A stretch of 64,000 bases of DNA from an uncultured Chloroflexia bacterium (GCA_963747315.1 CAVVEQ010000011.1:53723-117722); one strand, 5' to 3'. Shown: positions 8,642-58,002, counted from the stretch's first letter. Numbers and translations are program-made. The notes: generated by a model not told the origin, from the letters alone.

Positions 8642-8642
8642 T

Positions 8643-36160: not shown

Positions 36161-36175
36161 GATTGATCTCCTGAT

Positions 36176-36769: not shown

Positions 36770-36847
36770 CGCTACACCTCCTGCTTGAGTTGTACCGATT
36801 ATAGAGGGTAGAGATTACAAAAGTCTTACACAGGGGAAAAGGAAGGA

Positions 36848-38080: not shown

Positions 38081-38084
38081 GGCG

Positions 38085-38768: not shown

Positions 38769-39007
38769 GGGGTCTCCACATTGGGCTGGCGCACCGTGCC
38801 AGGCGAGCTGGGTGAATGACGGAGCGCTTTGAGCTTTGTCCAGGTTTTAGAACACAGCTTTCAACTACAACCAGGAGCCTGGACAAAGCAAGTATATACC
38901 GGAATTATTACACAAATCTTAAGCCTTGTTCATAGTCCCGTAAGGTTGCCTTCGGTTTCTCGTAAGAACTACTCGCTAAGATGATGAAAACCAGAAATAC
39001 GGAGGCT

Positions 39008-39662: not shown

Positions 39663-39690
39663 GCCCAACCGGAGGGAAAGCGAGCCGACT

Positions 39691-41049: not shown

Positions 41050-41158
41050 TTAAAGATTGAACCGCCAAGGGCGCGAAGAAGCGAAGAAGCACAAAGAAAA
41101 CCAAAAATATATCTTGGTGTTCTTTGGGTTCTCTTGGTGGTCTTCGTAGTTCAATGTT
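41050..41158 (+). repeat. Hairpin-repeat family, variant A copy (near-twin of 45012..45124)
   Basis: ttaaagattgaaccgccaagggcgcgaagaagcgaagaagcacaaagaaaa...ttctttgggttctcttggtggtcttcgtagttcaatgtttt. The termini are inverted (GATTGAAC...GTTCAAT). Confidence 0.9.
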
Positions 41159-41180
41159 TTACATTTTTACGGGGTGGGAG

Positions 41181-41225
41181 TAAAGATTGAACCGCCAAGG
41201 GCGCGAAGGGGCGCGAATAATCACG
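41181..41225 (+). repeat. Hairpin-repeat family, truncated left arm only
   Basis: taaagattgaaccgccaagggcgcgaaggggcgcgaataatcacgc. Confidence 0.7.
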
Positions 41226-41239
41226 CAGAATATCGCTGC

Positions 41240-42847
41240 TTATGGGACAATGTGAAATATTACCGCAAAACCATCGCGATAAACTTCTTCCAAGCGCAAA
41301 TCGGCTTCAGCCTTGCGGATAAAAGCAGTATGGTTCAGGTCAGAGAGGATATAGCGGGCAGCAAATTTACCCTCGATCTGCTGGGATAGTTGATCCACCT
41401 GGCCACGGGTTATCGCTCGCCAATCCTCGTATAGCCCCGCGTTATACAATTGCATATAGGTAGGATCTAACCCGATTAGATATGTGTTGTGTGTATTGTA
41501 GAAAAATAAACGCGGGAAGTCATCCCAATCTGTCTGGAAAATGCGCTCGCCTTGGGCAGTGTTCCGAATTAACCAGGCAGAAGCATCGGCGTACGTCTCA
41601 TAGGGTTTGGATCCTTGAATGCTTTTGATAGTTGCAGGCAAGGTGTGGAATACGCCCAGGCTCACCAGGATCAACACCGTACCGGCGATCCCCAAATATT
41701 GCCAGCGGGACGCAAGGACTTGCTTCAGTTTATCCGGCGCAGCAACCAGGGTTTCCTCTAACCAACCGCCAGGCTGCAACAGGGATTGAAATGCCAGGCT
41801 GCCAAATATCAAGGCAAAAGGAGCAAGATATTCAATAAAATGGCGTGATCTCATGGTCATCCAACTGAAAAGGAACACCATTAACAATGCCACCGCCGTA
41901 GCTGATTTCATACGCCGCCCTGTAATCCCCAGGGTAAGAAAGCCTAAACCCAGCAGCGCTAGTACCGGCCAGGAATTCTCCAATAACTGAGCAGTGGTAT
42001 AGGGATACCATTCGCCACCCACCCCCACCGAAGTGGCTTCTCCTACTTTTGGCAGGATATGCCGGATCGTAAAAATAATGTTATGCGGGAAATATGGATG
42101 AATGACCAAACCGGCTATGATCCCGATCATTGAGTAGACCGCTGGTTGAAATGCCAGGCGCCTGTCAACCAGCCATACTGCCAATGCATAAACCACTGCC
42201 ATAATTGGTAAAAGGGGAAAAGCATTATACATCCAGACATAAATAAAACCGACCAGGACAAATAGTTTTGTTCTTCCTTGTAGCATCCAATGCAAACTCA
42301 ACGCCAGGATGGCCAGAGATAACGACGGGGACCGTGTAAGGCTCATCCTGGACAAAAATGCCTCCGAGATAACCAGCAATCCCAAAGCCCACAAGGCAGG
42401 ATAGCGCACCTTCTGCCCACGGAGTAGCCACCAAATACATAAAAAGGCAGCGCTGGCAAAGATAATGCTCGCCCATTTTGCCCCTAATCGTAAATCGCCA
42501 AAGGTAAACGGGATCAGTGCAACATGAAAAAGGAAATGATGATTACTATACTCGCTCTCATTTAAGATGGTTAACGGCAACCAGGGATAGTCTGGGCGCA
42601 AACCCTCCTGACGCATGATCTGAGCCATTTTTATATGGTAATACCCATCGTTGCCGGCCAAATCGGGGGTCGAAAATTGGATCACCGACATACCCAAGCT
42701 AAAAACAAAAAACAGTAAGATTGCTTGCAAAACCAGCTTGATGGCAGGTTGAGAAACCAGGACGTTGCGAATATTCTTAATAACCGAAAAAAGGCGACTC
42801 TGGACTGCTGCGTTGAACGATTTCTCGTAGGGAAGTTCGGGATTCAT
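41240..42847 (-). CDS. Large polytopic membrane protein, GT-C-like (AT-richer cassette)
   Basis: 535 aa with about 13 TM helices. First loop is [18 protein letters not shown]. The C-terminal soluble domain ends ...[13 protein letters not shown]. It lies downstream of the sigma/anti-sigma pair on the same strand. Confidence 0.7.
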
Positions 42848-42941
42848 ATCTCAATTATTCCACAAGATGGCTGCAGGCAGTATCCGAGCTCCCTGCAGCC
42901 ATCACTGCAACCGAGATGGTCTACATTAGCTAATATTTTGA

Positions 42942-44333
42942 CTAGTCGTCATCATCATCATCGTCGTCACCATCATCATTGTCGTTGTCGTTGGTGTTCC
43001 AGTTGTCGTTCAGGTTGTCGTTCCAGTTGTCATTGGTGTTCCAGTTGTCATTCAGATTGTCATTCAGATTGTCATTCAGATTGTCATTCAGATTGTCATT
43101 CAGATTGTCATTCAGATTGTCATTCAGATTGTCATTCAGATTGTCATTCAGGTTATCATTCAGGTTATCGTTCAGGTTATCATTCAGGTTATCGTTCAGG
43201 TTGTCATTCAGGTTGTCATTCAGGTTGTCATTCAGGTTATCGTTCAGGTTATCGTTCAGGTTATCGTTCAGGTTATCGTTCAGGTTATCGTTCAGGTTAT
43301 CATTCAGGTTATCGTTCAGGTTATCGTTCAGGTTATCGTTCAGGTTATCGTTCAGGTTATCGTTCAGGTTATCGTTCAGGTTATCGTTTATGTCATCAGT
43401 AGAGGCGAGTTCAACTTCACGCATAACCAGGTTTCCATTGGCATCTTGCAAGGCATGTACCTTGACCAGGCTACCCACCGTGATCTGTCCTTTGATCTCC
43501 GAGGTGGGGACCAGAACAAAAGTGCGCCCGCCAACCACCCAAGAGTCTGCATTGATCGCTTCAACGGTGCCAACGTACTCGATCTCACCGTCGTCAAAGC
43601 TACCGGCAGTATTTGAAACCAGGATCGCACGCTTTATTTCGTCCTGAGCAGTTTCAGGTAAGGCACTCATCATTCCGCTCAAGGTCTCCGTGTAGCGCTT
43701 AAGAAGTACTGCCACCCGAGAAGCCAGTTCCTGGGCGCCGGTCGGGTCGCCAGCAGCCACGGTTTCTAGCTCTGCGATCGCTCTCTGAACATATTGTTCG
43801 TATTCCTGAACCGCCTGGGCAATATCTACGTAGCGCCCGCTGGCAATCAACCGGGCAATCTCGTCCAGGCGCCGTTCAGCAAAAGCCAGATTGAGTTGGG
43901 CTTTTTGGGCTGCATCACGTGCCAGGGTAACACGAGTTTGTTCCATACCCGTCTTTACACTATAGAGTACATCGCCGGGTAAAGCCGATTGGGATGCATA
44001 AGCTGTCATTCCTGCCCCGCCAAACAAAAAGGTAACTAATATTACCAAAACTGCTGCTAAAGTAAGTACAGTCCGAAACCCAGGGGTAGCCATGTTCCAT
44101 TTCTCCTTCCATTGCTGGTAAAAAGGTACCTTGCCCGCTGTACGGGTATTGTATGAGAAACCTTGCTCCTTGACTATCTCGTCAACCTCAGCAACAAAAT
44201 TGGCCAAGCCTCTGGCTGCGGCATCAGGATCACGGGGGGGTACCGAGCGTAGCTGTTGATACCTGCGCTCCAGTTCTGGGTCTATGGGTTGTTCTGAAAG
44301 AGGGTTATCAGCCACGGGTATTACTCCTCGCAC
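42942..44333 (-). CDS. Anti-sigma-factor-like single-pass membrane protein (DUF5667/DUF5666-like ectodomain) with a C-terminal (NDNL)n repeat and poly-Asp tail
   Basis: It overlaps the sigma gene by 13 nt. TM helix [21 protein letters not shown]; [21 protein letters not shown] (DUF5667-like); beta-barrel-like [21 protein letters not shown]...; then about 28 x NDNL and [11 protein letters not shown]. Confidence 0.75.
42978..43392. repeat. 12-bp tandem repeat array (~28-30 units) encoding (NDNL)n on the minus strand
   Basis: Plus-strand units ttgtcattcaga / ttatcattcagg / ttatcgttcagg / ttgtcattcagg occur in homogeneous sub-blocks. Confidence 0.95.
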
Positions 44334-44857
44334 ACTGTCATAGACTGGCGCAATGTTACCAGAGCACGGTATTGCAATGCGCGTGTAGCATCCACGGTCT
44401 TTCCCAGTAATTCAGCAACCTGATCATGTGACCAGTCTTCCATGAAACGAAGATCAATCACAATCTGTTGCTCGTATGGCAGTTGGAGCAAAGCATTTCT
44501 GAGTTGCTCAGTCTCCTGCCTGTTAAGAACTCCATTTTCAACATCGCTGTCTGGGTCAGGCTGTGAGTCTGCTTCCAGGGTTATATTGGAGGTCTGCTTG
44601 CGGTAAAAATCAACCGCCCAATTGTGTGCCATCCGGTAAAGGTATGCCCGCAAATTGCCTTCGGGGGTCCGTCTGCTCCGGATCAATTGTAAAAACCTTG
44701 AAAACGTTTCTGCCACACATTCCTCCGCCAGATACTGGTCGCCTAGCAGCCGGTAGGCATACCGGTACATACCTGGGCTGTTGTCCTTGTAGACCCTGAT
44801 CAGAGCTTGTTTATCCAATTGCTGCGCCTCGGTCGACAGCACTGCTTCCTTGCACAC
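44321..44857 (-). CDS. ECF-type RNA polymerase sigma-70 family factor
   Basis: Region 2 (YRYAYRLLGDQYLAEECVAETFSRFL...YLYRMAHNWAVDFYRK) and region 4 (LPYEQQIVIDLRFMEDWSHDQVAELLGKTVDATRALQYRALVTLR). Confidence 0.9.
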   Translation of the reverse strand: MCKEAVLSTEAQQLDKQALIRVYKDNSPGMYRYAYRLLGDQYLAEECVAETFSRFLQLIRSRRTPEGNLRAYLYRMAHNWAVDFYRKQTSNITLEADSQPDPDSDVENGVLNRQETEQLRNALLQLPYEQQIVIDLRFMEDWSHDQVAELLGKTVDATRALQYRALVTLRQSMTVCEE

Positions 44858-44969
44858 GGTTTCTCACCCTTTATAACGACGAGAGAAGAAAAACATGACG
44901 ATTAATGTTGGGATTACTCATTATAAACGCATCTAAGCTGCTCAAGCTGCTGACGAAGCTGGGTTCAAA

Positions 44970-45006
44970 TCAGGTGCAACGCACTTCTCAAGTGCATTGC
45001 ACCTGA
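44970..45006. other. 17-bp-stem hairpin abutting repeat copy 45012..45124, upstream of the sigma gene
   Basis: TCAGGTGCAACGCACTT-CTC-AAGTGCATTGCACCTGA, with one mismatch. Confidence 0.6.
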
Positions 45007-45011
45007 ACAAA

Positions 45012-45124
45012 TTAAAGATTGAACCGCCAAGGACACGAAGAAGCGAAGAAGCACAAAGAAAATACTCTTAATTACTTCGTGCTCTTTGGGTTTCCTTGGT
45101 GGTCTTCGCGGTTCAATGTTTAAA
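45012..45124 (+). repeat. Hairpin-repeat family, variant A copy (near-twin of 41050..41158, same orientation)
   Basis: The first 51 nt differ from 41050.. at only 2 positions (ggGcGcg vs ggAcAcg). The right arm is ...ctctttgggtttccttggtggtcttcgcggttcaatgttta. Confidence 0.9.
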
Positions 45125-45192
45125 TCCCTATCCAGAACAAATATTCTACCCCACATCGCTATCCAGGTAATCTTAAAGTTTCCAAATCCCGA

Positions 45193-45221
45193 TTGACATC
45201 TGCTATAATCGCGTGTAAACT
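45193..45221 (+). promoter_or_regulatory. Candidate sigma-70 promoter for the ExeA-like ATPase gene
   Basis: TTGACA (45193..45198), 17 nt, TAAACT (45216..45221). A TATAAT also lies at 45204..45209. Confidence 0.4.
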
Positions 45222-45279
45222 TTAACGAGCTTGCCGAAAGACCTTGTAACCATATCTAAACCTGCAAAAGAGACCTTCT

Positions 45280-46137
45280 ATGGCTACATTGCGCGACCCA
45301 CAACGACGGATCATCTTGCGCGAGCTGGGCTTCTCTGAAGAGCCCTTCTCTCGCTCGGCGGACCCGCGCTTCCTGTACCTCTCTGCCCAGCACGGCGACG
45401 TGCTCGACCGCATCCAGGAGGTCGTCGAGGAGCGCCGCGGCCTGGCAGTGGTGGAGGGCGGCTTCGGGGTGGGCAAGAGCACCATCGCCCGCCGCCTGGA
45501 ATCGATCTACCGCACCTACCCGGCGGATTTCCAGGTGGTCTTCGTCCACACCGCGGCCTACGAATCGGAGTATGCCGCCCTGCTGGACGTGAGCTACGCC
45601 CTCAACCTGGACCGCCGCAAAGGAATGACAATGCAGTGGCGCGAGTTCGAGAGCTTCCTGGTGGACCAGAAAGAGCAGGGCCGCAATGTGGTCGTCATCC
45701 TGGACGATGCCCAGCTCATGGTTCCGGATGCCCTGTCTCTGGTGCACCATATCTACAACTTCGACATCTCGCAAAAGCTGGCCCAGGTGATCCTCTTCGG
45801 GCAGCCCGAGCTGCAGCGCATCTTCAACCAGCGCACCGAGGTGCTCAGCCGGGTGGATGCCTGGTTCCGCCTCAACCCACTCTCCCTGGAAGACACCCTG
45901 GAGCTGATCCGCTTCCGCTGCGCGGTTGCCGGGCGCAAAGACGCCCTGCTGACCCAGAGCGCCTTCCTGGAGGTATGGAAAGCCACCCGGGGCATCCCGC
46001 GCGAGATCGTGGCAGTCTGCTCCAAGGTGATCAACGAGATGGGCTACCAGAAGAAAGCCATGGCAGATAACGCCGTGGTGCACGCCGCCCTGCTCGATTC
46101 GCAGCCGCCGCGCGCCGAGGCCTTCGAGCTGGCTTGA
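45280..46137 (+). CDS. ExeA/TniB-like AAA ATPase
   Basis: LGFSEEPFSRSADPRFLYLSAQHGDVL (ExeA-type N-terminus), Walker A GGFGVGKST, Walker B VVVILDDAQ, and sensor region ILFGQPEL. Confidence 0.8.
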   Translation: MATLRDPQRRIILRELGFSEEPFSRSADPRFLYLSAQHGDVLDRIQEVVEERRGLAVVEGGFGVGKSTIARRLESIYRTYPADFQVVFVHTAAYESEYAALLDVSYALNLDRRKGMTMQWREFESFLVDQKEQGRNVVVILDDAQLMVPDALSLVHHIYNFDISQKLAQVILFGQPELQRIFNQRTEVLSRVDAWFRLNPLSLEDTLELIRFRCAVAGRKDALLTQSAFLEVWKATRGIPREIVAVCSKVINEMGYQKKAMADNAVVHAALLDSQPPRAEAFELA

Positions 46138-46229
46138 GAGTCTGTCATGTGTCGGTTTCCGCCCATGCCCGCTCTCGCCCCGCAGACAACAAAACGGTTT
46201 GCAGTTTTTGACTTCAACCTCAAAAAAAG

Positions 46230-46238
46230 TTATCCACA
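46230..46238 (+). promoter_or_regulatory. Perfect consensus DnaA box TTATCCACA
   Basis: An exact 9-mer at 46230..46238. It is followed immediately by a 12-bp perfect hairpin and an AT-rich stretch. Confidence 0.35.
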
Positions 46239-46239
46239 G

Positions 46240-46270
46240 GCTTTAACCCCCATATCTGGGGGGTTAAAGC
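46240..46270. other. Perfect 12-bp-stem hairpin
   Basis: GCTTTAACCCCC-atatctg-GGGGGTTAAAGC. Confidence 0.8.
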
Positions 46271-46331
46271 ACCCGGACACCCGTTTTTTGGGATAAGACT
46301 ATTTTTATGGACATAAAAATAATGGAATTAT

Positions 46332-46703
46332 ATGGCTAAGAAAATACGAGATCCCGGCGACACCGATAAGACCGACCTGTACCCCTGGCTGCGTTTGCTG
46401 GAGCTGGAGGTGCAGCCTCCCAAGCACGCCACGCCGCGGCGGGGCAAAGGCCGCCCGCCAAACCCCTTCCCGCGCCGCCCGGTGCACGTCACCCTGACCG
46501 AAGACGAGCTGGACGCCCTCGACGAGTTGGCGCGCAGCCTTTCGGCGCATTTCAACAGCCGCATGCACCGCGGCCACGTGATCGCTTTCCTGACCTTCTA
46601 CTTCCACAGCCGCCTGCAAAAAGGCGATGTGATCGACCTGCCGGAAGAAATCATCTCGCTGAGCGATCTGGCACACTATCTTGACCTGGAAAAAGGAGTA
46701 TAA
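46332..46703 (+). CDS. Small protein with a ribbon-helix-helix-like segment
   Basis: Basic N-terminus (RRGKGRPPNPFPRR), then VHVTLTEDELDALDELARSL, which resembles the RHH/CopG beta-strand plus helix. 123 aa. Confidence 0.5.
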   Translation: MAKKIRDPGDTDKTDLYPWLRLLELEVQPPKHATPRRGKGRPPNPFPRRPVHVTLTEDELDALDELARSLSAHFNSRMHRGHVIAFLTFYFHSRLQKGDVIDLPEEIISLSDLAHYLDLEKGV

Positions 46704-47036
46704 TAGATTAGAACTTTTGTTCTAACAAAGGACCCATTAAATGACAGACTTTATCAAAAGATCACCCCCAGATTAAAAACCAGCCAGCCCGGCATGGGCA
46801 AATGCGGGCTGGGGCAGAGACGCTTGCGAAGCGAAGTTTTTTCGAAAACTGCTGACCCCTGCATTGTATCATGTTTCTGAGAGCCAGGCAAGCTGAGTGA
46901 AAGCCTGCCGCACCGGGTTGGGCAGCCCGGAACGGCCACCGCTTATCAGCGGCCTCAATGAGCCGCCGCTCAACGGAGCACCGCTTGAAAAGCGGTCTGG
47001 AAGCCTGATACCCCTCCGCACCTGCCGCACACCGGT

Positions 47037-48215
47037 TTGGCAGCTATCGCGGATTCTATGGATTTCACAACCACGCCAAAAGTCAGAGCCGTCTTAGAGA
47101 CGGTGCGCAGCCTGGATGCAGATGAAACGCGCCAGTTCCACTCTGCACTGCTCAACCCAAAGCGCGCCGGGCTGGAGACCTCCCCCGAGGAGCACCCCGA
47201 CCCCTGGCAGGTGTTCACCCTGCTGGACGCCTACCTGGAGCGCCCGCCGGTCGAGTACGTTGCCCAGGGGCTATTCGCCCTGCCCTCGCTGAACATCGTC
47301 TACGGCGCGCCGGGCACGCTGAAGAGCTTCATCCTGGCCGACCTGGCGGTATGCGCCGCGGCCGGCATGGACTGGCTGCCCCCGGCAGCCTGGATCAACG
47401 GCAACCAGAGCCGCGGCTACCCCACCCGCCAGTGCCCAACTATGTGGCTGGACTTCGACAACGGGCGCCGGCGCACCCACGACCGCTTCGGCGCGCTGGG
47501 CCGCTCCCGCAACCTGCCCGCAGACACCCCCCTGTACTATTACTCCATGCCCTCCCCCTGGCTCAACGCCGGCGATAAAAACTCCATTGGCAACCTGCTG
47601 CTGCGCATCCAGGATAAAGGCATCCAGCTGGTGATGGTGGATAACCTGGGCGTGGTCAGCGGCGACGCCGACGAGAACAGCGGCGATATGGTGGCGGTGA
47701 TGTCCGAGTTCCGCCAGCTTGCCGAGGAAACCGGCGCGGCAGTGGTGCTGGTGCACCACCAGCGCAAAGGCACCGGCTACACCGGGCGGGCCGGCGACAG
47801 CCTGCGCGGTCATTCCAGCATCGAGGCCTCCCTGGACCTGGCGCTGCTCGTCGAGCGCGAGGAGCTGTCCGATACGGTGACGATCAAAGCCACCAAGGTG
47901 CGCGGCGAGGACGTGCGCCCCTTCTCTGCCGTCTTCACCTACGATCCGGGCCCCAACGGGGAGCTGGAGACCGCCCAGTTCTACGGCATCGCTGCCGAGG
48001 ACAACCGCAGCGGGCAGGCGATCGAGCGCGAGATCATGGTCGCCCTGCTGGGCTCCAGCCTGAACAAGACCGACCTGACCAAGGCGGTCAAGGAGGTGCT
48101 GAAAGACGTGGGCATCAACCGCATCCGCGACTGGATCGACCGCCTGTCTGCCACCGGCAAGCTGGTCGTCTCTAACGGGAAGAACAACACCGAGAAGATC
48201 TACAGCCGCCTGTAA
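47037..48215 (+). CDS. RecA-fold ATPase of the AAA_25/RepA-like family (mobile-element replicative helicase-like)
   Basis: Walker A YGAPGTLKS, Walker B LVMVDNLGVV, then AVVLVHHQRKG and RGHSSIEASLD (KaiC/RepA-like sensor motifs). The listed start is TTG; ATG 47058 is an alternative. Confidence 0.8.
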   Translation: MAAIADSMDFTTTPKVRAVLETVRSLDADETRQFHSALLNPKRAGLETSPEEHPDPWQVFTLLDAYLERPPVEYVAQGLFALPSLNIVYGAPGTLKSFILADLAVCAAAGMDWLPPAAWINGNQSRGYPTRQCPTMWLDFDNGRRRTHDRFGALGRSRNLPADTPLYYYSMPSPWLNAGDKNSIGNLLLRIQDKGIQLVMVDNLGVVSGDADENSGDMVAVMSEFRQLAEETGAAVVLVHHQRKGTGYTGRAGDSLRGHSSIEASLDLALLVEREELSDTVTIKATKVRGEDVRPFSAVFTYDPGPNGELETAQFYGIAAEDNRSGQAIEREIMVALLGSSLNKTDLTKAVKEVLKDVGINRIRDWIDRLSATGKLVVSNGKNNTEKIYSRL

Positions 48216-48221
48216 GGGCAT

Positions 48222-48400
48222 ATTCACCACAGAGACACGGAGATCACAGAGAAAGTCTTTTATAAAACGCCGTAGGGCGGGATTTATCCCGCCTGCCTCG
48301 CCCAGAGCGGAACGGCAGTCGAAGGACGATTCACCGCAGAGAGCGCAGAGAAGGGCATTTGAACCGCAAAGGAATAAAGATAGCAAAGGGCTTTTGTCTA
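48222..48400 (+). repeat. Related word-repeat element (CACAGAGA / GCAGAGA / GCAAAGG words) containing a GTAGGGCGGG hairpin
   Basis: attcaccacagagacacggagatcacagagaaa ... gattcaccgcagagagcgcagagaagg ... tttgaaccgcaaaggaataaagatagcaaaggg. Confidence 0.55.
48271..48293. repeat. REP-like hairpin CGTAGGGCGGGAT-tt-ATCCCGCC
   Basis: It has the same CGTAGGGCGGG arm as 17510..17542. Confidence 0.65.
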
Positions 48401-48409
48401 CCACCCGCA

Positions 48410-48915
48410 CATCGCACTTACCTGACACCTGACACCGGATCACCCCCTCACCCATGACCCCCTCACTCACACCCACTTACACCCCGGGCATAATCGGCGG
48501 ATACCGCCTGCGGGCGCTCGCCGGGGGTATGCCGCGTTTGCAGAATGCGATCCAGACTCAGATACTGTCATTGCTCGGCAATGGGCCGGCATCCCATACC
48601 GCTGGATGTGCATCCAGCCCCACTTACACCACCTACACCGGCTTACACTGCCGCCAGCGCCGTGCCAATCGGACTCCAAGAATCGCCAAACGCCACTTAT
48701 TCCACTCACGGGCCTCCGGGCGCTCTTATCCCCCGGCAATGCTCTCTTTATTTCCCACCCAGATGCGAAAACAAACCGGATTCAGCATGTTTTTCCCCAC
48801 TCCTCACAATTCGTACCGGTCATTTACTCATTTACAGCCATTTACGGGCACTTACAACCTGCCGCCCCCAGCCACTCACGCACTTACCCCCCTTTAAGGG
48901 GGTAAGTGCGCGTGG
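48410..48915. repeat. Non-coding iteron-like array: at least 12 copies of C(A/T)(C/T)T(T/C)AC, mostly CACTTAC, ending in a perfect hairpin
   Basis: Copies lie near 48415, 48473, 48620, 48640, 48693, 48703, 48821, 48830, 48839, 48849, 48873 and 48881, with an inverted copy at 48902. Terminal palindrome is CGCACTTACCCCC-CTTTAA-GGGGGTAAGTGCG (about 48879..48910). Confidence 0.6.
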
Positions 48916-49007
48916 GGTTATCACCGGTCAATGCCAGGCATTGTTTGCTAAAGCGGTCTGCCTCAATCTTTGGGCAGCACCCATCTTACGCCCCAGGGAG
49001 CAGTCTT

Positions 49008-49865
49008 ATGCCGCCTGACCGCTCTGCCCGGCAGGCACTCAGTGCTGAGACCAAAGCCCTGTTCAAGGCATTGTTCGCCGAACAGCGCCTGCGCCCCGGA
49101 ACCTTGATGACTGTGCTGCTCAGCGTTGCCGCCCTGCTGCTGTTCCAGCCGCAGACCGTCGTTCTGGCGCTGGCTCTGTTTGCGGCAGTGCTGGCGGGTT
49201 GGGTGGCGCTGGTGATCGCCTTCAGCAAGCGCAAAGGCGACCTCGATTCCGGCGCCGAATACCCGGCCTACCCCGAGCTGAGAAAGCGCCTGCCCTGGAT
49301 TGTCCTGGCGGGTGGGGGGCTGGTCGCCGCGCTGGTTGCGGTAACCTGGGCTGCGCCGCGGCTATTCCCGCCCTGCCCGCCGCAGGATACCCAGGCGTTC
49401 GCCTCGCAGACCCGCGAAGGCTGGCTGATCCGCTACGAGGGCGACCTGCGCCTGGGCGAAGCGCTGGAATATGCCCCGCTGCGCTGTCGCGGCGTTGAGG
49501 TGGACAGCCTGGCTTTTGATTTCCAGCTCGGCAGCGAGTACGGCAGCGCCCAGATCGGGCTGGACGGCAGCGGTACGGCGTTGATCGCCGGGATGGGCGC
49601 CTGGATTTACTCTGCCAAAGACAATCCTCCCACTCTGGCGGTGCAGTGCTTTGTGCTGGAAGGCGCCGCCCAAAACTGGGCCTGGCACGAGACCGCCCCG
49701 CAGACCCTGGAACCCGGCCGCTGGCAGGAGGTCGATTGCCCGGCGAGCCAGCTCAGCCCGCCGGGGTGGGCCAACCCGCCGCAGTTTATCGGCTTGCTGT
49801 TTGCGGATAGCGCCGGGGGGCAGGGCCTCAGCCGGGTGAATGTGGCTGCTGCAAATATTCGTTGA
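49008..49865 (+). CDS. Membrane-anchored hypothetical protein
   Basis: ATG 49008 follows GGGAG. It has three TM helices and then a beta-rich ectodomain. The part of track ORF 48906..49865 upstream of 49008 lies in the iteron region. Confidence 0.55.
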   Translation: MPPDRSARQALSAETKALFKALFAEQRLRPGTLMTVLLSVAALLLFQPQTVVLALALFAAVLAGWVALVIAFSKRKGDLDSGAEYPAYPELRKRLPWIVLAGGGLVAALVAVTWAAPRLFPPCPPQDTQAFASQTREGWLIRYEGDLRLGEALEYAPLRCRGVEVDSLAFDFQLGSEYGSAQIGLDGSGTALIAGMGAWIYSAKDNPPTLAVQCFVLEGAAQNWAWHETAPQTLEPGRWQEVDCPASQLSPPGWANPPQFIGLLFADSAGGQGLSRVNVAAANIR

Positions 49866-49891
49866 TGATTTATTGCTGACAGGAGTTTTGT

Positions 49892-52587
49892 ATGCGAGGA
49901 ATGTTGTGGGGTAAAACGGTTTTATGGGTGGGGATCTTCTTGCTGGCAGGTTGCCGGGGAGGGCAGGTTTCTCCTACCCCGCCAAACCCATCGCCGCCGG
50001 TGGGGTTGGCGACGGTCCAGCCGCCCACGCCAACCAAAACTGCCACCCCGCTGCCGCCCACCATCACCCCGACCCCCGACCCTTACGGCTGGAACCCGGT
50101 GAGCTTGCAGGCGATGGTTGGGGTGGCTGCGCCGGGCGCCAGCCCACAATGCGCTGCCGGTTTTCCTGCCGCTGCGGAAGGCGAGCTGCTCCTGGGCGCT
50201 GACCCGCAGACCTGTGCGCCGCTCGTTGAGCGCAGCCAGGCACGCTTGCAGGTGGGTGGGCTGGGCTCCGGGGCCCCCGGCGAGTGGCTGGCGCTGGAAA
50301 TCGCCTGCGGGGGAGATAGCCCCTGCCTGTACGGGCCGCCTTCAGATCAGGCGCGCTTCGAGGTTGCCTTGCCGGACGGCAGCCTGCTGTGGGCTGGCGA
50401 TTGCAGTCAGCCGGGCTTGTGCGCCGGGTCGAGCATCGATGCCGTGGCCAGTGAAGCCCCGCGGCCGGTGCAGGTCACCCTGCGCCATTTCCAGCCGGGG
50501 CCTGTGGAGCTGGTGCTCTCCGCGCAGGGCGGTGCGGTGTGGCGGGTGGCTGGCATCCAGGCCCTGGCTTTGCCGCCCTTGCCGCAGGGTTTGATCCAGG
50601 GCTACGCTTACAGCCCCTACCGCGATTGCCAGGTACCGGGGATCGGTCCGGTTCCCAGCCAGGCTGAGCTGGAGCAAGACTTGCAGCGCCTGGCGAATAG
50701 CGCCAATGCCGTCCGCACCTACTCAACCCAGGGCGTCAGTGCGGATATTGCCCGTCTGGCGGTTGAGCAAGATTTGCGGGTGGCGGTGGGAGTGGCGCTC
50801 AGCGCTGAGGATGAGAAGAACCAGGCCGAGATCGAAGCCGCCCGTCAGTTAGCCCAGGAGATTGCGATCGAATTTTTCATCGTCGGTAACGAGGTCATCC
50901 TGCGCGGCGAGCTGACCCCGCAGCAGGTGGCAGACTATATGCTCCAGGTGCGGGAGCAGACCGGCAGGCCGGTGGCGTATGCCGAGATCGGCTCGTTCTT
51001 TGTCCAGCCGGATGGGGCCGGGGGGTCGAGCCGCGCCCGGACATGCTGCCTATCCTCCAGGCGGCGGATGTGCTCCTGGTGCACCTCTACCCGTATTGGG
51101 ACGGCATCCCGGTAGAGCAGGGCGCAGCCTATGTGCTGGACGCTTACCAGGCGCTGCAGGGCGCTTTTCCGGATCAGCACATTGTCATCGGCGAGACGGG
51201 CTGGCCCTCACGCGGCGATGTCCGCGGTCCGGCAGTGCCCTCGCCGGAGAACCAGCGCCGCTTCTTCTACGAGTTCACCAGCCTGGCAGCCGAGAAGGGC
51301 GTCGAGTATTACTATTTTTCGCCCTTCGAGGAGCCCTGGAAAGCCAACGAAGGCGGGGTGGGGCCGAGCTGGGGGGTGGCGACGGTGGGGCGGGTGAATA
51401 AGTTCGAGAGCGAGGCGCTGTATTTCCCGCGCCCAACGCCGCCCGCCGTCGCACTGGCAGATTGGCCGCCGGCAGGCGCCTCGCCCACCCAGGTAGCTCC
51501 GGACCAGGGGCCGCTTGCCACCCCTGACCCGAACGCCGCCCAGGCCGGCGCCCCGCCCCTCGAGCTGTACCGCCAGTTCCCCTTCCCGGCAGGCCTCAGC
51601 CCGAGCGCCTGGCAGGGGGATGTGGAAGATATCCTCATGGACGCCTGCTGGCGAGATGCGCCGTACAGCCCGCCGGAATTGCTGGAGCTGGGCTACGCCA
51701 GCCAGGCGGATATGGCCCAGGGGGCTGAGGGCTGGGCCGGCTTTGTCTGGGAGGGGCGGCCGCCGCAAGGCAGCGACCTGAGCGCCTACAACCAGGTGCG
51801 CTTCTACGCCCGCGGTGCGCAGGGCGGCGAGAAGGTGACCTTTTTCTTCGGCGGCGAGCGCAGCAACCTGGCGGCCTGCCAGAGCGGCGCCATCCCCTGC
51901 GATGCGCAGACCCTGCCGCCCATGCTGCCCGTCACCCTGACCCAGGACTGGCAGCCTTATTCGCTTTATCTTGGAGATCAGCCCCTCACCAATGTGGTGG
52001 ACGGGTTGGGTTGGGTGGCTTCGGATTGCCAGAATCCCCAGGGGGCCACCTTCTACCTGGATGACATTGAGCTGGTGAGCGCTGCTGCCCCGCCGGCGGG
52101 CGAGCCGGCCCCGCTCACAATTTTGGAGGACGGCTGCCTGGCTCCCGGCTTCGACCTGGGCATCGACACCTCCGAACAGCAGCGCGATCGGGCCAGCCCG
52201 GCGGAGGGCGCGATCCGCCTGGAATACCCCGTTGCGCAGAAGTGGGGGGCGGCGTTTATCTTCGTCGATCTGGAAGAATGGGAGAACCGGCCGTACATCG
52301 ATCTCTCCGCCTATTCCATCCTGGAGGTGGAGCTGCGCAGCGAGAGTGATCACTTGACCGTGGAAGTGGGCATGAAAGACAACGACGATCCGGATAACGG
52401 CCGCGAGCCAAAGGACCGCGAGCCGTTGCGGAGTGACTGGCATACGCACCAGCTCCCGATGGCAGAGTTCCAGCGCTACCGCTACGCTGATCCAGCCCGG
52501 ATCTACATCCCCATGGAGCTGGTCTTCGACACATCCTGGGCGGTGCCGCAGGTGGTCTATCTGCGCTCGGTGCGCTTATTGCCGTGA
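49892..52587 (+). pseudogene. Lipoprotein GH17-like beta-1,3-glucanase with two C-terminal carbohydrate-binding-like domains; single frameshift
   Basis: Lipobox FLLAGC. GH17/COG5309-like motifs YSPYRDCQ, FIVGNEVILRG (49892 ORF) and HLYPYWDG, VIGETGWPSRGD (51043 ORF). The frames join as ...FVQPDGAGGVEPRPDMLPILQ... if the G6 run at 51019..51024 is G7. Confidence 0.75.
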
Positions 52588-52594
52588 GGTGGGC

Positions 52595-53752
52595 ATGATT
52601 GATGTGAAGGCATTGAAAGCGCAGGTGAACTTGCTGGCCCTGGCAGAGCAGAGCACCACGCTGCGCCGGGTGGCAAGCTCCAACGGCGGCGAGTGGGCCG
52701 GTCCGTGCCCGTTTTGCGGCGGGAAAGACCGCTTCCATGTCCAGCCGTACCGTCCGGGCGGGGGGGCGTGGCTGTGCCGCGGCTGCAGCGAGGGAAAGTG
52801 GAAGGACGCCATCGAGTACGGCGAGCGCCTGTGGCCCGGGCTGGAGTTCAAGGAGGTGTGCGAGCGGCTGGCAGGGGGGATCGAAATCAATGCGTATAGT
52901 CAAATAGACCATAACCGCAGACCGGGGAACCTGGCGACTGCCTCGCCGGTCTCGCCTGCTTATGCCTCGCCCGCCGAAGACTGGCAGGTTGCCGCCCGCA
53001 GCGCGATTGCCGTGGGTAAGCGCGCTCTGTGGAGCAAGGAGGGGGAGCGCGCTCTGGATTACCTCTACCGGCGCGGCCTGCGCGAAACCGCCATCGACAA
53101 CTGGCAGCTGGGCTATTCGGAGGGGATGGAAGCCCACCCCCCAGCCCCTCCCCCTGAAGGGGGAGGGGAGCCGAGGGGTGGGGGTGGTCTTTACATCCCG
53201 CGTGGGGTGATCATCCCCTGCATGGAGGCGGAGCAGGTCTGGTATCTCAAGATCGCTTTGCTGCCCGGCGACCCGGTCAAATGCCAGGGCTGCGGAGAGA
53301 GCGCGCCGGCGCGCCGTCCTTGCCCGCGCTGCGAGACGGTCAACAAGTACCGCGGCGTCAAGGGCAACCGCACCGCGGCGATCTTCGGGGTGGACGAGTT
53401 GCACGGCGCGGATATGGCGCTATTTGTGGAAGGCGAGTTCGATGCGCTGATCGCCTGGCAGGAGGTTAGGGACGTGATCGCCGTGTGCACCCTGGGCAGC
53501 GCCGGCACCCACCTCGACCTTGCCACCTGGGGCCCTTACCTGCTGCCCGTGGAGCACATCCTGGCGGCCTATGATGCCGACCCTGCCGGGCAGGCCGGGC
53601 TGAAGACCCTGCAGGAGCTGAGTGAGAAGGTGAAGGCGCTGCACCTGCCGCCGGGCGCCAAGGATATCAACGAGTTCTACCTGGCGGGCGGCGACCTGTG
53701 GTCGTGGCTGAAGGGCGAAGCGCAGCGCCTGGGGTTGGTACCCAAGCAGTAA
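52595..53752 (+). CDS. DnaG-like DNA primase of mobile-element type (CHC2-like zinc finger plus Toprim)
   Basis: ATG 52595. Zn finger CPFCGGKDRFHV...WLCRGC, a second CxxC...CxxC (CQGCGES...CPRC), and Toprim motifs FVEGEFDALIAWQ and AYDADPAGQAG. Confidence 0.8.
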   Translation: MIDVKALKAQVNLLALAEQSTTLRRVASSNGGEWAGPCPFCGGKDRFHVQPYRPGGGAWLCRGCSEGKWKDAIEYGERLWPGLEFKEVCERLAGGIEINAYSQIDHNRRPGNLATASPVSPAYASPAEDWQVAARSAIAVGKRALWSKEGERALDYLYRRGLRETAIDNWQLGYSEGMEAHPPAPPPEGGGEPRGGGGLYIPRGVIIPCMEAEQVWYLKIALLPGDPVKCQGCGESAPARRPCPRCETVNKYRGVKGNRTAAIFGVDELHGADMALFVEGEFDALIAWQEVRDVIAVCTLGSAGTHLDLATWGPYLLPVEHILAAYDADPAGQAGLKTLQELSEKVKALHLPPGAKDINEFYLAGGDLWSWLKGEAQRLGLVPKQ

Positions 53753-53793: not shown

Positions 53794-54681
53794 TCAGGCA
53801 GCCGGCGGCGCAGCCGGCAATTCTACTGGCGCTCCTGCCTCGCCGCGTTTGCCCAGCCAGCGCGCAATTGAAATTAAGATCAACGGGAGCAGGATAGCCG
53901 CCACCAGCACATACGGAACTGCCATCGTGCCGGCAAAGTTTGTCAGCGTAATGAGAATAGCCGCCGACACGTTGCGCTGCGCCGTGCCGAGCCCCATCAC
54001 AGTGCGGACACCTGGATCGCGGCCGCCAACCGCAAAACCGATCAACAGACTGCCGAAGATGAACAGCAGCAGCGCCAGGAAACCGCGGGTTCCGATCAGG
54101 CTGATCACGTTGGCTAAATTCAATCCCAACCCGACCACCAGCAGGATCAGGATACCCAGGCTGCCGACCTTGTTCATGGTCGGCGCCCAGTTTTTGGCCG
54201 TATCGGGCGAGTGCGACTTGACCAGCAAGCCCAGGATCAGCGGGATCAGCATCAGCACGATCAGCGATTGAGCAATCGCCCCCGCATCCACTTCAACCCC
54301 GGACAGGAGCAGCGGCAGGACCACCGGCAGGTAGAAGATGGTCACCACCATCAGCAGGGTCATTACCCCTACGGCAACGCCCAGGTTGGCTTTAGCGCCG
54401 CGCGCCTCCAGGATCAGGAAGGGCGCTCCTGCACAGCAGGCCAGGACCATCAATCCGATCTTGAGCGAATCTTCGAGCGGGATGACCAGCGTGATGGCGT
54501 AGGCAAGCAGGGGCACCAGCACAAAGTTCGCCAGCAGCGCCAGGATCACCAGGCGCGCGTTTTTCAGTGGTTGGATGATCTGAGCTACAGTCAAGCCCAA
54601 GCCCATTGCCAGCATGCTGCACACGATGCCGAGCAAGCCGGATATCTGGGCGATAATTGTAAAGAGTTCATTGGCAGTCAT
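53794..54681 (-). CDS. Bile acid:sodium symporter (BASS) family transporter
   Basis: Start chosen at ATG 54681 (MTANELF), 8 nt after GGAG. It has LAMGLGLTVAQI, LANFVLVPLLAYAI and ACCAGAPF, typical of SBF/BASS. The upstream part of the track ORF to 54852 is non-coding-like. Confidence 0.8.
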   Translation of the reverse strand: MTANELFTIIAQISGLLGIVCSMLAMGLGLTVAQIIQPLKNARLVILALLANFVLVPLLAYAITLVIPLEDSLKIGLMVLACCAGAPFLILEARGAKANLGVAVGVMTLLMVVTIFYLPVVLPLLLSGVEVDAGAIAQSLIVLMLIPLILGLLVKSHSPDTAKNWAPTMNKVGSLGILILLVVGLGLNLANVISLIGTRGFLALLLFIFGSLLIGFAVGGRDPGVRTVMGLGTAQRNVSAAILITLTNFAGTMAVPYVLVAAILLPLILISIARWLGKRGEAGAPVELPAAPPAA

Positions 54682-54767
54682 AAGCATATCTCCTACGAGC
54701 ATAAAGATCGTACCGGATCCGAGCCTTGCAAGCCCCAGCCGTGCTCTTAATGACATAAGGCCCGTCG

Positions 54768-54846
54768 TTGCGAGGAGCGCTCTGTGCGACGAAGCAACCC
54801 CTTCCCGTCTTACGCTGAGATTGCTTCGGCACAGATCGCCTCGCAA
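54768..54846. other. ~79-nt extended hairpin in the 5' region of the BASS gene
   Basis: Nested pairings TTGCGAGG/CCTCGCAA, CTGTGC/GCACAG and CGAAGCAA/TTGCTTCG surround a 23-nt loop. Confidence 0.6.
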
Positions 54847-54933
54847 AGACATAGCACAATGTCGTTTGTGATTGAAATGTGCGCAGCGCTGTGGTGTTAC
54901 TCACAAGGCTGAATATCGAAAATCAAATCGCGA

Positions 54934-55524
54934 TCAGACATCCAGGGTGCTGCGCAGTTTTTCCAGCTCTTCACCCGTGGGGATCCAGACCTTGGCCGGG
55001 TCGAGATCATAGGACCAGGGCGCGGAGTTCTTCCAGCCGTTCTTCATGCGCTTGCCGTGATAGACGCTTTCGGGATCGTTCACCGTATCGCCTTCAAAGC
55101 CGTCGATGATGTTGTAAAGGTTGGTAAAACCTGCCTTAACAAGCATGTTAATGGCGAAGGCGCTGCGCCCGCCGGAGCGGCACATGGCTACGATGGTATC
55201 GTTCGGCTCGAACAGCTCTTTGACATGGTCGATGAAATCGGGGTTCATCTCAAAGCCGTACTTGCGCTTGTCTGCGTGCCATTGGTATTTAGGAAAAGCC
55301 ACCGGAATATTGACCGCCCCTTCCGCGTGACCGAGGAAGACGTACTCCTCGACCATGCGCACGTCGAGCACCTTGACATTCTCGGGGTCGGCTTTCCACA
55401 TCTCGTAGGCTTCTTTGGCGGTCACATACAGCCCCAGGGCAGTTTGCTTGGCGGGAGGCACTTGCATCCCCGCATGAATGACGGTTCCTTCACTTTCAGT
55501 CATTGGCTCATCTCCTTCTATCAT
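54934..55524 (-). CDS. Rhodanese-domain sulfurtransferase
   Basis: VKVLDVRMVEEYVFLGHAEGAVNIP and active-site loop VAMCRSGGRSAFA. Confidence 0.85.
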   Translation of the reverse strand: MIEGDEPMTESEGTVIHAGMQVPPAKQTALGLYVTAKEAYEMWKADPENVKVLDVRMVEEYVFLGHAEGAVNIPVAFPKYQWHADKRKYGFEMNPDFIDHVKELFEPNDTIVAMCRSGGRSAFAINMLVKAGFTNLYNIIDGFEGDTVNDPESVYHGKRMKNGWKNSAPWSYDLDPAKVWIPTGEELEKLRSTLDV

Positions 55525-55578
55525 TAATTACTGTTGAATGAACACTTATCAGCAGCGGCTTGGCCGCGGTGTTGCCCA

Positions 55579-56438
55579 TCAAAAGTCAGGATCCGGATAC
55601 TCAGTCTCCCGTCCTTCGGTGAAGGCAAGGATTCCCTCGACGCGGTCGCTATGAACGACCGAGCGCCAGTGCTCATTCATCATGATCGCGACTGCCTGTT
55701 CGACAGGCTCGCCCTGTCCATTTGAACAGCACTGCTTGACCGACTGTACCGCCGTAGGCGAGTTGTCCGCGATCTTCTCCGCGATACCCAGCGCCGCACT
55801 CATCAGCTTCGGCCCTGGGGTGGACTTCGTTCACCATTCCAAGCCGGTACGCCTCCTGGGCCGTGATCGGTTCCCCGGTCATCAACATCTGCATCGCCTT
55901 TCCTGGAGGTAGCACACGCGGAAGAAAGACCGGCGAGCCGCCGCCGGCGCTCAAGCCAACGATAGCTTCGGGCTGGCCGAAGACGGCTTCCTCAGAGGCG
56001 ATGATGAAGTCCGTGCTGATGGCGATCTCGCAACCGCCGCCGTAGGCCATCCCATGCACTGCGGCTGAAGATCGGCCGGCGTAACTGGCGCAGCGTGTAG
56101 AGAACGCGATCAAATACCTGGCGCTGGCGCAGCCATTGCTCCTTTGTCATCTGCTTGCGCTGGTACAGGTCGCCGCCCACGGAGAAGGCTCTGTCACCTG
56201 CCCCGGTCAGGATGGCGACGCGCACGGAGGCACGCGCGGCGATGGTCTCGAGTATCTCGATCAGCTGTGCCGCCAGTTCCGTCGTGATGGCGTTGTCGGC
56301 ATGCGGCCGGTTGAGGGTGATGATCGCCACGCGCCCGCCGGAGACGTACTCGACGAGCACGAGCTGGTCAGGCTCGGCGACATCCGCCGGCGGACGGTAA
56401 CCAAGCCGCTGCATGCGTGTATCGTTATCGTTGGTCAT
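55579..56438 (-). pseudogene. Enoyl-CoA hydratase/isomerase (crotonase) family protein, two frameshifts
   Basis: ITLNRPHADNAITTEL...ILTGAGDRAFSVGGDL (55992 ORF), AAVHGMAYGGGCEIAISTDFIIASEEAVFGQPE (55673 ORF) and LMSAALGIAEKIADNSPTAVQSVK (55579 ORF). Shifts lie near 56066 and about 55820. Confidence 0.8.
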
Positions 56439-56790
56439 GATTTTCTCCCAGGTATCCCTTTCACATAGTCTGTTTGAGGTGTATTGCTCTCAAATCCAGG
56501 TCACGTCGACGGGTTTGCGCACAGGAATCCGTTGATACTTCTCAGCTGGAATTCCGATTACAAACGCTCCATTTAGTGATCAGACCACCCGGGCAGGCTC
56601 GGATGCAGCTCCCGCAGGAGATGCATAAACTCTCATCCACCTGGATCATTACATCTAGTTTGTAGGATTACATCTCTAGATTTTCAGTCGGGTGCCAAAC
56701 GCCAGGGAAATGCCGTTTGGCACCCACGTTCAACCTGATTTCAGCTGCTAATGGTTGGTTGAGATCACCTTTGGGTGATCTTTCACTCGG

Positions 56791-57969
56791 CTACCCGAGC
56801 CGCATGGTCATCGCTTCTTCAAGCGTAGTCCCTTGGGGCAGCTTGGCCATGCTGCGCTTCTTCCACTCTTCCTCGAGCAGCTCCGCGGCCGCCTTCTCCA
56901 GGAATTCCGGCGCAGCCCACTCGAACACGTCGAAGTCGTTCTCGATGTAGCCGTGGCTGAACATGAAGTCCTTGTTGATCTGAAGCGTTTGCAGGTTAAT
57001 GGGCGACAGGACCGGCACAAACTCGACGCGCCGGATGCCTTCAACCGTATCTTCTTCATCCCGGTAATAGGTCTGTTTGTTGAGGATGGCTGCCGCGGCG
57101 CGCCTGTGCTCGTTAGCCCAGCGCCCCACCTTGATCAGGCCCTTCAGGAGGGCGACGATCAGCTCCGGGTGCTCCTCGCACGCCACATCGGTGACCGTGA
57201 GGGTCGCCGGGACATTTGCCGCCCCTTGCAGCGTCCAGTCCGGGTACCGGGAGAGGTCCTCGATGGACTTGAACTTGCCGGTTGTCTCCGAGAGCACGCT
57301 CAGGACCTTGCTTTGACTATACATGGCATCAATGACGCCCTTTTCCAGCGCCGTTTCCAGCGGGCGGAACGCCAGGTCGTGCTTGTGGTCGCGCTTCAGT
57401 TGGTACTCATTGGGGTTCTCCATCGGGGTGAGCATCTCGGGCTTGTCGTACCAGTCGTCCGGGTAGGGGAACTCCACGATCTCCACATCGTCGCGGGTCA
57501 TGTCGTTGAGCATGAGCATCAGCTCGATGCCATGCTCTTCCTGCACACGCCACCAGTCGTTCTTGATCACGTTCAGGCTCTTGGAGAGGCCGATCTTCTT
57601 GCCCTTGAGGTGCGACATTTTGTAGATGGGGTCGCGGGCGCGCACCATCATGACGCCGCCTTCGTAAACCTGCGTCGTCCCAATCAGGCGGGTGCGGCGG
57701 ACGTCGGCCTGGACGTGGATAGCCGGGTGGCAGCCGCCATAGCGCATCAGGTTGTCCAGGTTGTGGACGTAGTGCGGGTACCAGTCATTCTCGGTGGTGG
57801 AACGCAGGTACTTGTACGCGACGCCGATCTTCTTAAACTCCTCCTTCACCCAGCCGAGCTCCTGGTCCACGTTGCTGGGGGATATCAGGGGGCAGTTGGT
57901 GTAGTAGAACTCTTTCCAGTCCACATCGACGGAACGCATTGTCTTGCCTTTAAAAGTCATTGTACCCAT
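56791..57969 (-). CDS. DszB-like protein (2'-hydroxybiphenyl-2-sulfinate desulfinase / NMT1-type periplasmic-binding fold, cytoplasmic)
   Basis: No signal peptide. From memory of Rhodococcus DszB: YYTNCPLISP vs YSNCPVPN (catalytic Cys), RYGGCHPAIH...RRTRLIGTT vs RFGGEIPPLL...GRTRLLGIT, LKGKKIGLSKS vs LAGRRIGVSAS, and C-terminal FEWAAPEFLEKA vs DQWAAPEFLNNS. Confidence 0.6.
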   Translation of the reverse strand: MGTMTFKGKTMRSVDVDWKEFYYTNCPLISPSNVDQELGWVKEEFKKIGVAYKYLRSTTENDWYPHYVHNLDNLMRYGGCHPAIHVQADVRRTRLIGTTQVYEGGVMMVRARDPIYKMSHLKGKKIGLSKSLNVIKNDWWRVQEEHGIELMLMLNDMTRDDVEIVEFPYPDDWYDKPEMLTPMENPNEYQLKRDHKHDLAFRPLETALEKGVIDAMYSQSKVLSVLSETTGKFKSIEDLSRYPDWTLQGAANVPATLTVTDVACEEHPELIVALLKGLIKVGRWANEHRRAAAAILNKQTYYRDEEDTVEGIRRVEFVPVLSPINLQTLQINKDFMFSHGYIENDFDVFEWAAPEFLEKAAAELLEEEWKKRSMAKLPQGTTLEEAMTMRLG

Positions 57970-58002
57970 GGCTTATTACTCCTTTTTTTCTTATGAGTTA
58001 GG

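Follow-up and report, generated by a model that had tools for sequence, protein, structure and literature searches.

What kind of element places a helicase gene, a primase gene and an array of short repeats side by side in an uncultured Chloroflexia bacterium, with no recombinase nearby? The window analyzed here is a stretch of 64,000 nucleotides (GCA_963747315.1, CAVVEQ010000011.1:53723-117722), and the locus in question lies at 45280-53752, where all genes are co-directional on the plus strand. A first-pass annotation had described an ATPase with an AAA_22 domain, a small basic protein, a RepA-like ATPase, an iteron-like array and a primase as a replication-type module without an integrase. 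All of these parts are present at the positions it gave, and our family assignments agree with its list. We propose, from comparative sequence analysis, that the locus is probably an acquired and still functional replication cassette, of the type carried by plasmids and mobile elements, residing in a variable region of a ~280-kb megaplasmid, the host being a member of the Anaerolineae.

The cassette encodes a helicase and a primase of replicative families. RepA matches AAA_25 (PF13481) at 1.5e-27 and belongs to the AAA_25/SF4 helicases. Its nearest solved relative in profile comparisons is RepA of RSF1010 (1g8y, 2.3e-7), followed by weaker matches to T7 gp4, DnaB and Twinkle; the C-terminal ~90 amino acids have no family assigned. 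The primase is of the DnaG/T7-gp4 type, with matches to Zn_Ribbon_Prim (2.9e-7), Toprim_2 (1.3e-7), DNAG_N (6e-4) and phrog_849 (5e-26), as well as to TIGR01391 at 8e-15, which is under the cut-off of that model. It begins at the ATG at 52595, 8 nt past the stop codon of a GH17 glucanase gene. The earlier view of a replication-type kit without an integrase is thereby borne out: its helicase family is replicative, as is that of the primase, and repA homologues occur in phage-plasmid, viral and integrative elements.

The locus lacks the hallmarks of an integrative element. As the first-pass annotation had also stated, there is no tRNA gene in the window and no tyrosine integrase, with no PF00589 match anywhere on contig C11, which contains the window. 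No recombinase was found among the open reading frames (ORFs) at 20.8-25.9 kb, at the far end of the variable island, although serine recombinases were not searched genome-wide, and no terminal repeats occur at the cassette borders. The locus therefore does not qualify as an integrative and conjugative element, an integrative and mobilizable element or a prophage, because the searches made returned neither an integrase or recombinase nor att-type boundaries.

An origin-like element follows repA. The motif CAYTTAC occurs nine times in 48415-48908, where ~0.06 copies are expected; the whole window has 13 on both strands, against 7.2 expected. CACTTAC-type direct repeats form three clusters (~48415-48480, 48620-48710 and 48820-48856), and the array terminates in a perfect palindrome, GCACTTACCCCCCTTTAAGGGGGTAAGTGC (48877-48908), with 13-bp arms and a C6-TTTAA-G6 core. 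An alignment of the repeat region of four close loci shows that the clusters and the palindrome are invariant, while the spacers have strongly diverged. The 500-bp iteron-like array of the first-pass annotation is thus only partly upheld: the CACTTAC array stands from 48415 onward, but the first ~180 bp after repA consist of hairpin-type word repeats, and we reject their identification as iterons. A DnaA box at 46230 was not counted as part of the origin; it is conserved only in the nearest relatives (loci L020 and L025) and is absent from L021, L022 and L048.

Comparable palindromes follow repA in several phyla. Of 26 repA loci, from Chloroflexota, Bacteroidota, Proteobacteria and other groups, 20 have a perfect palindrome within 900 bp after repA, with a stem of 10-23 bp and a short, mostly TTTAA-type centre. 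By our own estimate, the chance of such a stem in a random 960-bp stretch is ~0.01. The arms differ by lineage (CACTTAC, TTGCA, GTCTGCC, ATCCCAC, TGGCAGT or TTTGGCA) and the same words often also occur as direct repeats nearby. Across phyla, the order is repA, then lineage-specific repeats and a palindrome, then usually the primase. In L022, a palindrome cluster lies upstream of the AAA_22 gene, and the gap between repA and the primase holds two inverted-repeat sets around an AT-rich stretch. Because the arms co-vary with the direct repeats, they suggest a protein-binding origin rather than a mere terminator. Thus, the repeat array and the palindrome appear to form a conserved origin-like element.

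The cassette is a discrete unit under purifying selection. Its close relatives come from metagenomes and metagenome-assembled genomes of Anaerolineae/Chloroflexota. In L025, whose RepA is 90% identical, a single ~5-kb block runs from the AAA_22 ATPase through the small protein, RepA and a 717-bp repeat region to the primase. DNA homology between the window and L025 is limited to 45072-48918 and 52595-53733, and the flanks of L025 are unrelated. L025 has neither the membrane protein gene nor the GH17 gene; its homology gap marks 48919-52594 of the window as a 3.7-kb insertion that sits precisely at the junction of palindrome and primase start. This cargo is present, together with the window's neighborhood, in L020 and L047, while L026 has a carbon-nitrogen hydrolase gene (11593-12555) between palindrome and primase start, so the site has taken up co-directional cargo at least twice. 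The interleaving of a membrane protein and a glucanase with the replication genes, noted previously, is therefore real but secondary, and the two GH17 ORFs are one split gene. It is intact in L020 (893 amino acids [aa]). In the window, one base pair is missing next to a run of G near 51027, which breaks the gene, either through an assembly error or as a genuine frameshift.

Ratios of nonsynonymous to synonymous substitution rates (dN/dS), computed against L025 and L020 at a dS of ~0.3-0.6, are lowest in the small protein (0.01-0.05) and the AAA_22 ATPase (0.05-0.06), followed by RepA (0.12-0.14) and the primase (0.22). These values indicate that the four genes are intact and constrained, and lend no support to the earlier suggestion of a decayed integrated replicon.

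Carriage of repA is sporadic, and the cassette is therefore accessory. We find repA in none of the four other species of the genus and not in most of the family; of 400 other genomes in the class, only 5 have a match at 1e-60 or better. The genes are thus not conserved at this position even across the genus, and neither of the two outcomes that the first-pass annotation had named as refuting was observed. Distant RepA homologues (43-57% identity) are found in mobile contexts: a PrimPol-AAA_25 fusion adjoins a tyrosine integrase and a serine recombinase, and further distant loci also have recombinases. A homologue with 40% identity lies on phage-plasmid III of Ca. Promineifilum, which carries terminase and head genes, where it is paired with a PriCT-2-domain protein and not with a Toprim primase. 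Furthermore, 28 IMG/VR contigs have repA homologues (40-57% identity), mostly in the order repA, then primase.

The pair of AAA_22 ATPase and small protein has a narrower distribution. It is confined to the clade with RepA identity of at least 69% and is absent from all 28 viral loci. Within this clade there are fuller versions that also carry ParA with a 148-aa partner, repeats of a centromere-like GGGTAGACCC type and a P22_AR_N protein, and that have no integrase. In L021, the gap between the ParA and P22_AR_N genes (3906-4844) contains some nine repeats of the GGGTAGACCC type along with five GGTTGAA units in tandem, with the look of a plasmid centromere. Some close relatives adjoin housekeeping-type genes, such as that for EF-Ts, on long contigs.

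The window is evidently located on a secondary replicon. Synteny of window 1-21460 with contig C23 of a sister species (G004) leaves that contig at its end (280,897) and resumes at its start (3), which implies that C23 is a circle of 280,906 bp. It corresponds to contigs C11 (1-75146), C17 and C18 of the genome studied here (G000); contig C1 is a 97% duplicate of C11:45279-52430. These matching contigs (C11, C17, C18 and C1) hold no tRNA gene, while the remaining contigs hold 49, and dnaA is on contig C9. Synteny and gene content thus place the window on a ~280-kb megaplasmid and not on the main chromosome. The cumulative GC skew of the G004 circle has its minimum at 221.8 kb and its maximum at 93.7 kb, an amplitude reached by none of 2000 shuffles.

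The conserved maintenance locus of this replicon is not the cassette but a locus on C17 (L046 = G000:C17:20001-40000, 5537-11336), which is conserved in all four sister species. It encodes an RHH (ribbon-helix-helix)-like 131-aa protein with a ParA, and a ParB_N-like 381-aa protein with a second ParA. Divergent genes there encode a paralogous AAA_22 ATPase (276 aa, 36% identity), a homologous protein of 108 aa (25% identity) and a 285-aa protein with a DnaA_N domain. In G004, the locus lies at ~231 kb, 9.5 kb from the skew minimum. We found no convincing iteron-like repeats at the C17 locus. The earlier suggestion of an extrachromosomal replicon is therefore correct for the contig, which is syntenic with a 281-kb circular, tRNA-free replicon, but not for the cassette as the locus that maintains it.

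The complete 212-kb plasmid of Leptolinea sp. HRD-7 (AP024711), which has no annotated Rep gene, shares this trio. Genes for an AAA_22 ATPase, a 108-aa protein and a DnaA_N-domain protein adjoin Soj there, at 195.7-197.9 kb. Its skew minimum, at 191,076, is 4.7 kb from the trio (amplitude reached by 0 of 2000 shuffles). At locus L051, an AAA_22 ATPase with 76% identity is likewise paired with a DnaA_N protein. The two settings of the pair, with a DnaA_N protein or with RepA and a primase, suggest that at plasmid origins it is tied either to a domain that recruits the host helicase or to a helicase and primase of its own. The Leptolinea and C17-type loci resemble the cassette in their AAA_22 ATPases (36-38% identity), small proteins (25-27%), gene order and adjoining ParA-type partition genes. 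They differ in having a DnaA_N-domain protein in third place instead of RepA and the primase, and no CACTTAC array was found in them.

The AAA_22 ATPase is among the best-conserved cassette genes. It scores 123 (1e-35) against the ExeA-like model TIGR03015, far under the cut-off of 324.5. Its Pfam matches are of AAA type only, with no peptidoglycan-binding domain. We rule out ExeA/GspA of type II secretion, given the AAA-only length of 285 aa, the low TIGR03015 score and the replication-gene neighbors in every locus. The nearest PHROGs family is named "DNA transposition protein". A structural model (predicted local distance difference test [pLDDT] of 90.5) covers the AAA+ module and lid only. 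Its best fold match is TnsC of ShCAST (E 1e-10), and archaeal and eukaryotic Orc1/Cdc6, MuB and TnsC of Tn7 also match; template modeling (TM) scores against the Orc1/Cdc6 and TnsC/MuB groups are ~0.66, with E values of 1e-10 to 5e-8. The sequence itself has a marginal Orc1/Cdc6 match (1fnn at E 0.015). Like Orc1/Cdc6 and TnsC/MuB, whose folds align with the model, the protein would be an AAA+ ATPase that binds double-stranded DNA in an ATP-dependent manner. Orc1/Cdc6 proteins differ in having a C-terminal winged helix, and TnsC in having a partner transposase/TniQ, neither of which is found here. The ATPase is accordingly not assigned to Orc1/Cdc6, whose matching structures are also ~100 residues longer (target-normalized TM ~0.5). 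Nor is it assigned to the TnsC/TniB proteins of Tn7/Tn5053, as the called genes and Pfam lists of close loci include no DDE transposase or TniQ/TnsD.

The small protein has a candidate DNA-binding architecture. A conserved GRPP (AT-hook-like) motif is followed by a strand-like segment and two helices. In the AlphaFold2 model, an extended segment precedes helices 57-74 and 80-97, which have pLDDT values of 75-89. The only profile match is a weak, Arc-like one (phrog_3431, E 0.003), and a Foldseek search with the model returned no match. The protein has homologues in the 108-aa proteins encoded beside AAA_22 on contig C17 and on the Leptolinea plasmid.

Tentatively, then, the AAA_22 ATPase and its AT-hook/RHH-like partner could be an undescribed, modular initiator or helicase-loading pair of Chloroflexota plasmids. 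On megaplasmids, it would act with a DnaA_N adaptor that recruits host DnaB; on small elements such as this one, its partners would be the RepA and primase that the element itself encodes, and the origin would consist of short repeats with a C6-TTTAA-G6 palindrome. We infer a role for the ATPase, a repeat-binding protein and origin firing at this locus as follows. A single promoter at ~45.2 kb would drive the AAA_22 gene, the small-protein gene, repA and, past the cargo, the primase gene. A sequence-specific binder would occupy the CACTTAC repeats and the palindrome; candidates are the RepA C-terminal domain and/or the small protein. The ATPase, resembling TnsC and Orc1/Cdc6, would assemble on DNA and help to open it or to load the hexameric SF4 helicase. 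The DnaG-type primase would then prime, and host polymerase would complete theta-type replication. Copy number may be set by a short antisense RNA in the repA leader.

Several observations weigh against a functional replication cassette of this kind. The cumulative GC skew of C11, which the first-pass annotation had proposed to inspect along with circularity, proved uninformative and does not inflect at the cassette. We found neither a circular nor an excised form: C11 has no terminal overlap, and neither does any of the 13 whole contigs. The AAA_22 fold does not distinguish an initiator or loader from a TnsC/MuB-like protein, and the small protein can be assigned to RHH only weakly (overall pLDDT of 65, no fold match). 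The primase gene is 3.7 kb from the origin, and the GH17 gene before it, which carries a frameshift in this assembly, could be polar on primase expression. Finally, the window copy is without the ParA, 148-aa and P22_AR_N genes of the fuller versions.

Among other explanations, the one that survives best is a second working origin of the megaplasmid: a smaller plasmid would have fused with the resident replicon into a cointegrate, and the cassette, as the rep region of that plasmid, would now contribute to replication of the whole. The contig does belong to a plasmid-like replicon, neither the window nor the close relatives have an integrase or transposase near the cassette, and all cassette genes are intact and constrained. 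In addition, the fuller relatives, with ParA, the 148-aa partner and centromere-like repeats, amount to the whole maintenance region of a small plasmid. A working second origin is nevertheless unlikely, considering that the skew does not inflect at the cassette, that the genus-wide maintenance locus sits on C17 and that the par genes have been lost from the window copy. The close relatives beside housekeeping-type genes (EF-Ts), on long contigs, also speak against it.

A replication module left by a degraded prophage, phage-plasmid or phage satellite, after loss of the structural and integration genes, is very unlikely. It would account for the repA-primase order common on viral contigs, for the RepA homologue beside terminase and head genes on the Ca. 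Promineifilum plasmid and for the P22-type antirepressor-like gene of the fuller relatives. Yet no structural, lysis or integrase gene adjoins any member of the clade with at least 69% RepA identity, none of the 28 viral loci has the AAA_22/small-protein pair, and the genes are under purifying selection and show no decay.

A system unrelated to replicons, be it anti-phage defense, as the first-pass annotation had also offered, or a TnsC/MuB-like transposition or targeting module, is extremely improbable: the TnsC, MuB and PHROGs matches of the ATPase and the location in a variable island would suit it, but PADLOC gave no significant match (only fragments, at E 0.007 and E 3e-4), none of the close loci has a DDE transposase or TniQ-like gene next to it, and neither the conserved iterons and palindrome 3' of a replicative-type helicase gene nor the fact that, at plasmid skew minima, this ATPase is paired with DnaA_N proteins is readily explained by defense or transposition.

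A plasmid- or mobile-element-type replication cassette also has precedents. The IncQ plasmid RSF1010 similarly has its own SF4 hexameric helicase, its own primase and an origin of direct repeats and an inverted repeat, and IncQ primase acts at inverted repeats, following the logic of ssiA/ssiB (PMC8567376). The two systems differ in their primase (RepB' in RSF1010, a DnaG/T7-gp4 Zn-ribbon/Toprim primase here), in their initiator (RepC as opposed to an AAA_22 ATPase and a small DNA-binding protein) and in their repeats (20-22-bp iterons as opposed to 7-mers and a single C6-TTTAA-G6 palindrome). Set beside an IncQ-type oriV, the putative origin here has conserved direct repeats and one palindrome, in a sequence and layout unlike those of RSF1010. 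No gene of the operon matches RepC or RepB'-type families in Pfam, NCBIfam or PHROGs, and membership of the IncQ replicons is rejected.

The pri-rep-ori modules of phage satellites and islands such as Staphylococcus aureus pathogenicity islands (SaPIs) and phage-inducible chromosomal islands (PICIs) share with the cassette adjacent helicase and primase genes and origin repeats directly 3' of the helicase gene. The helicases of these islands and of staphylococcal cassette chromosome mec (SCCmec) are of other families, SF3/MCM-like. All three kinds of element have integrases and att sites, none of which were seen here. The primase-helicase operon of SCCmec is of this kind too (PMC7581432). In plasmid pRN1, the gene for the small RHH repressor Orf56 precedes orf904 in one operon, and an essential stem-loop region lies downstream (PMC4234260). 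The cassette parallels this arrangement, with a small DNA-binding protein gene 5' of the replication gene in one operon and a structured, origin-like region 3'. pRN1, however, comes from archaea and joins prim-pol and SF3 helicase in one fused protein, and its proteins are not homologous to those of the cassette. The cassette thus resembles the self-sufficient IncQ and pri-rep-ori kits and belongs to neither family.

Cassettes of this kind are familiar, but the AAA_22/small-protein pair may be a Chloroflexota plasmid initiator that has not been described before. Our literature search returned nothing specific on plasmid replication in Chloroflexota and no description of this module. The analysis points to a candidate replicon core (AAA_22 ATPase, small protein and partner) and to a self-sufficient cassette, compact at 5 kb, whose origin is defined. 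Should the cassette replicate, it could provide a shuttle-vector basis for a phylum lacking genetic tools and would add a new initiator type among plasmids. The placement of C11, C17 and C18 on a secondary replicon also changes how other findings on the window are to be read.

Table 1. Features of the cassette and its surroundings, in window coordinates.
Feature	Position	Strand	Remarks
AAA_22 (ExeA-named) AAA+ ATPase	45280-46137	+	285 aa; Pfam 8.5e-17
Small basic protein, possibly ribbon-helix-helix	46332-46703	+	123 aa
RepA-like AAA_25 helicase, SF4 type	ORF 47037-48215, called gene 47058-48215	+	385 aa
Non-coding stretch after repA	48216-48905		Hairpin-type repeats, then CACTTAC array
Hairpin-type word repeats, CACAGAGA / CGCAAAGG	48222-48400		Directly 3' of repA
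Origin-like region	48410-48908	+	Three CACTTAC-type clusters, terminal palindrome
Membrane protein	ORF 48906-49865; gene within insertion 49008-49865	+	
GH17 lipoprotein gene, two overlapping ORFs	49892-52587	+	
DnaG/T7-gp4-type primase (Zn ribbon, DNAG_N, Toprim)	ORF 52433-53752, true start 52595	+	385 aa
Hairpin repeat, like a miniature inverted-repeat transposable element (MITE), left border	45012-45124		Outside cassette
Promoter-like site TTGACA-17-TAAACT	45193-45221	+	Upstream of AAA_22 gene
Candidate antisense RNA in repA leader	46772-46891	-	Promoter-like site, two hairpins, terminator-like stem
Cargo insertion, 3.7 kb	48919-52594	+	Membrane protein and GH17 gene

The island around the cassette is variable. 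At the DNA level, nothing in the genus's four other species matches window 21460-53800, whose left and right flanks map to different contigs in sister species. The right flank (53852-57987, a BASS transporter and neighbors) has a paralogous copy, 72-82% identical, at G000:C9:183-3854, and several copies in sister species. With a multi-copy right flank and flanks on different contigs, no simple empty site can be reconstructed. The hairpin copy that the first-pass annotation gave as the left border does sit there but is not part of the cassette; the homology of L025 begins inside or just past it (~45072-45113). Compared with L020, the window has two extra insertions bounded by hairpin repeats, at 41069-45103 (GT-C, anti-sigma and sigma genes) and 35464-40066 (redox, histidine-kinase and response-regulator genes). 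L047 has the redox block, with other genes in place of the sigma block.

Putative regulatory elements precede two of the cassette genes. The best promoter-like site, upstream of the AAA_22 gene, is conserved in L025 and L021. Opposite the repA leader, a promoter-like site (46891-46863) with a conserved -10 box and upstream TG, and a terminator-like stem (46793-46779) followed by a T run, suggest a counter-transcript RNA of ~95 nt. This candidate is kept in five loci, with compensatory changes in hairpin 1. It has no Rfam family match; the sole Rfam match is a spurious miRNA on the hairpin repeat. Directly past the stop codon of the small-protein gene lies a further palindrome, TTAGAACTTTTGTTCTAA (46708-46725), which may be an operator. 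Its TAGAAC/GTTCTA arms are conserved in the window, L020 and L025, and are degenerate but recognizable in L021, L022 and L048.

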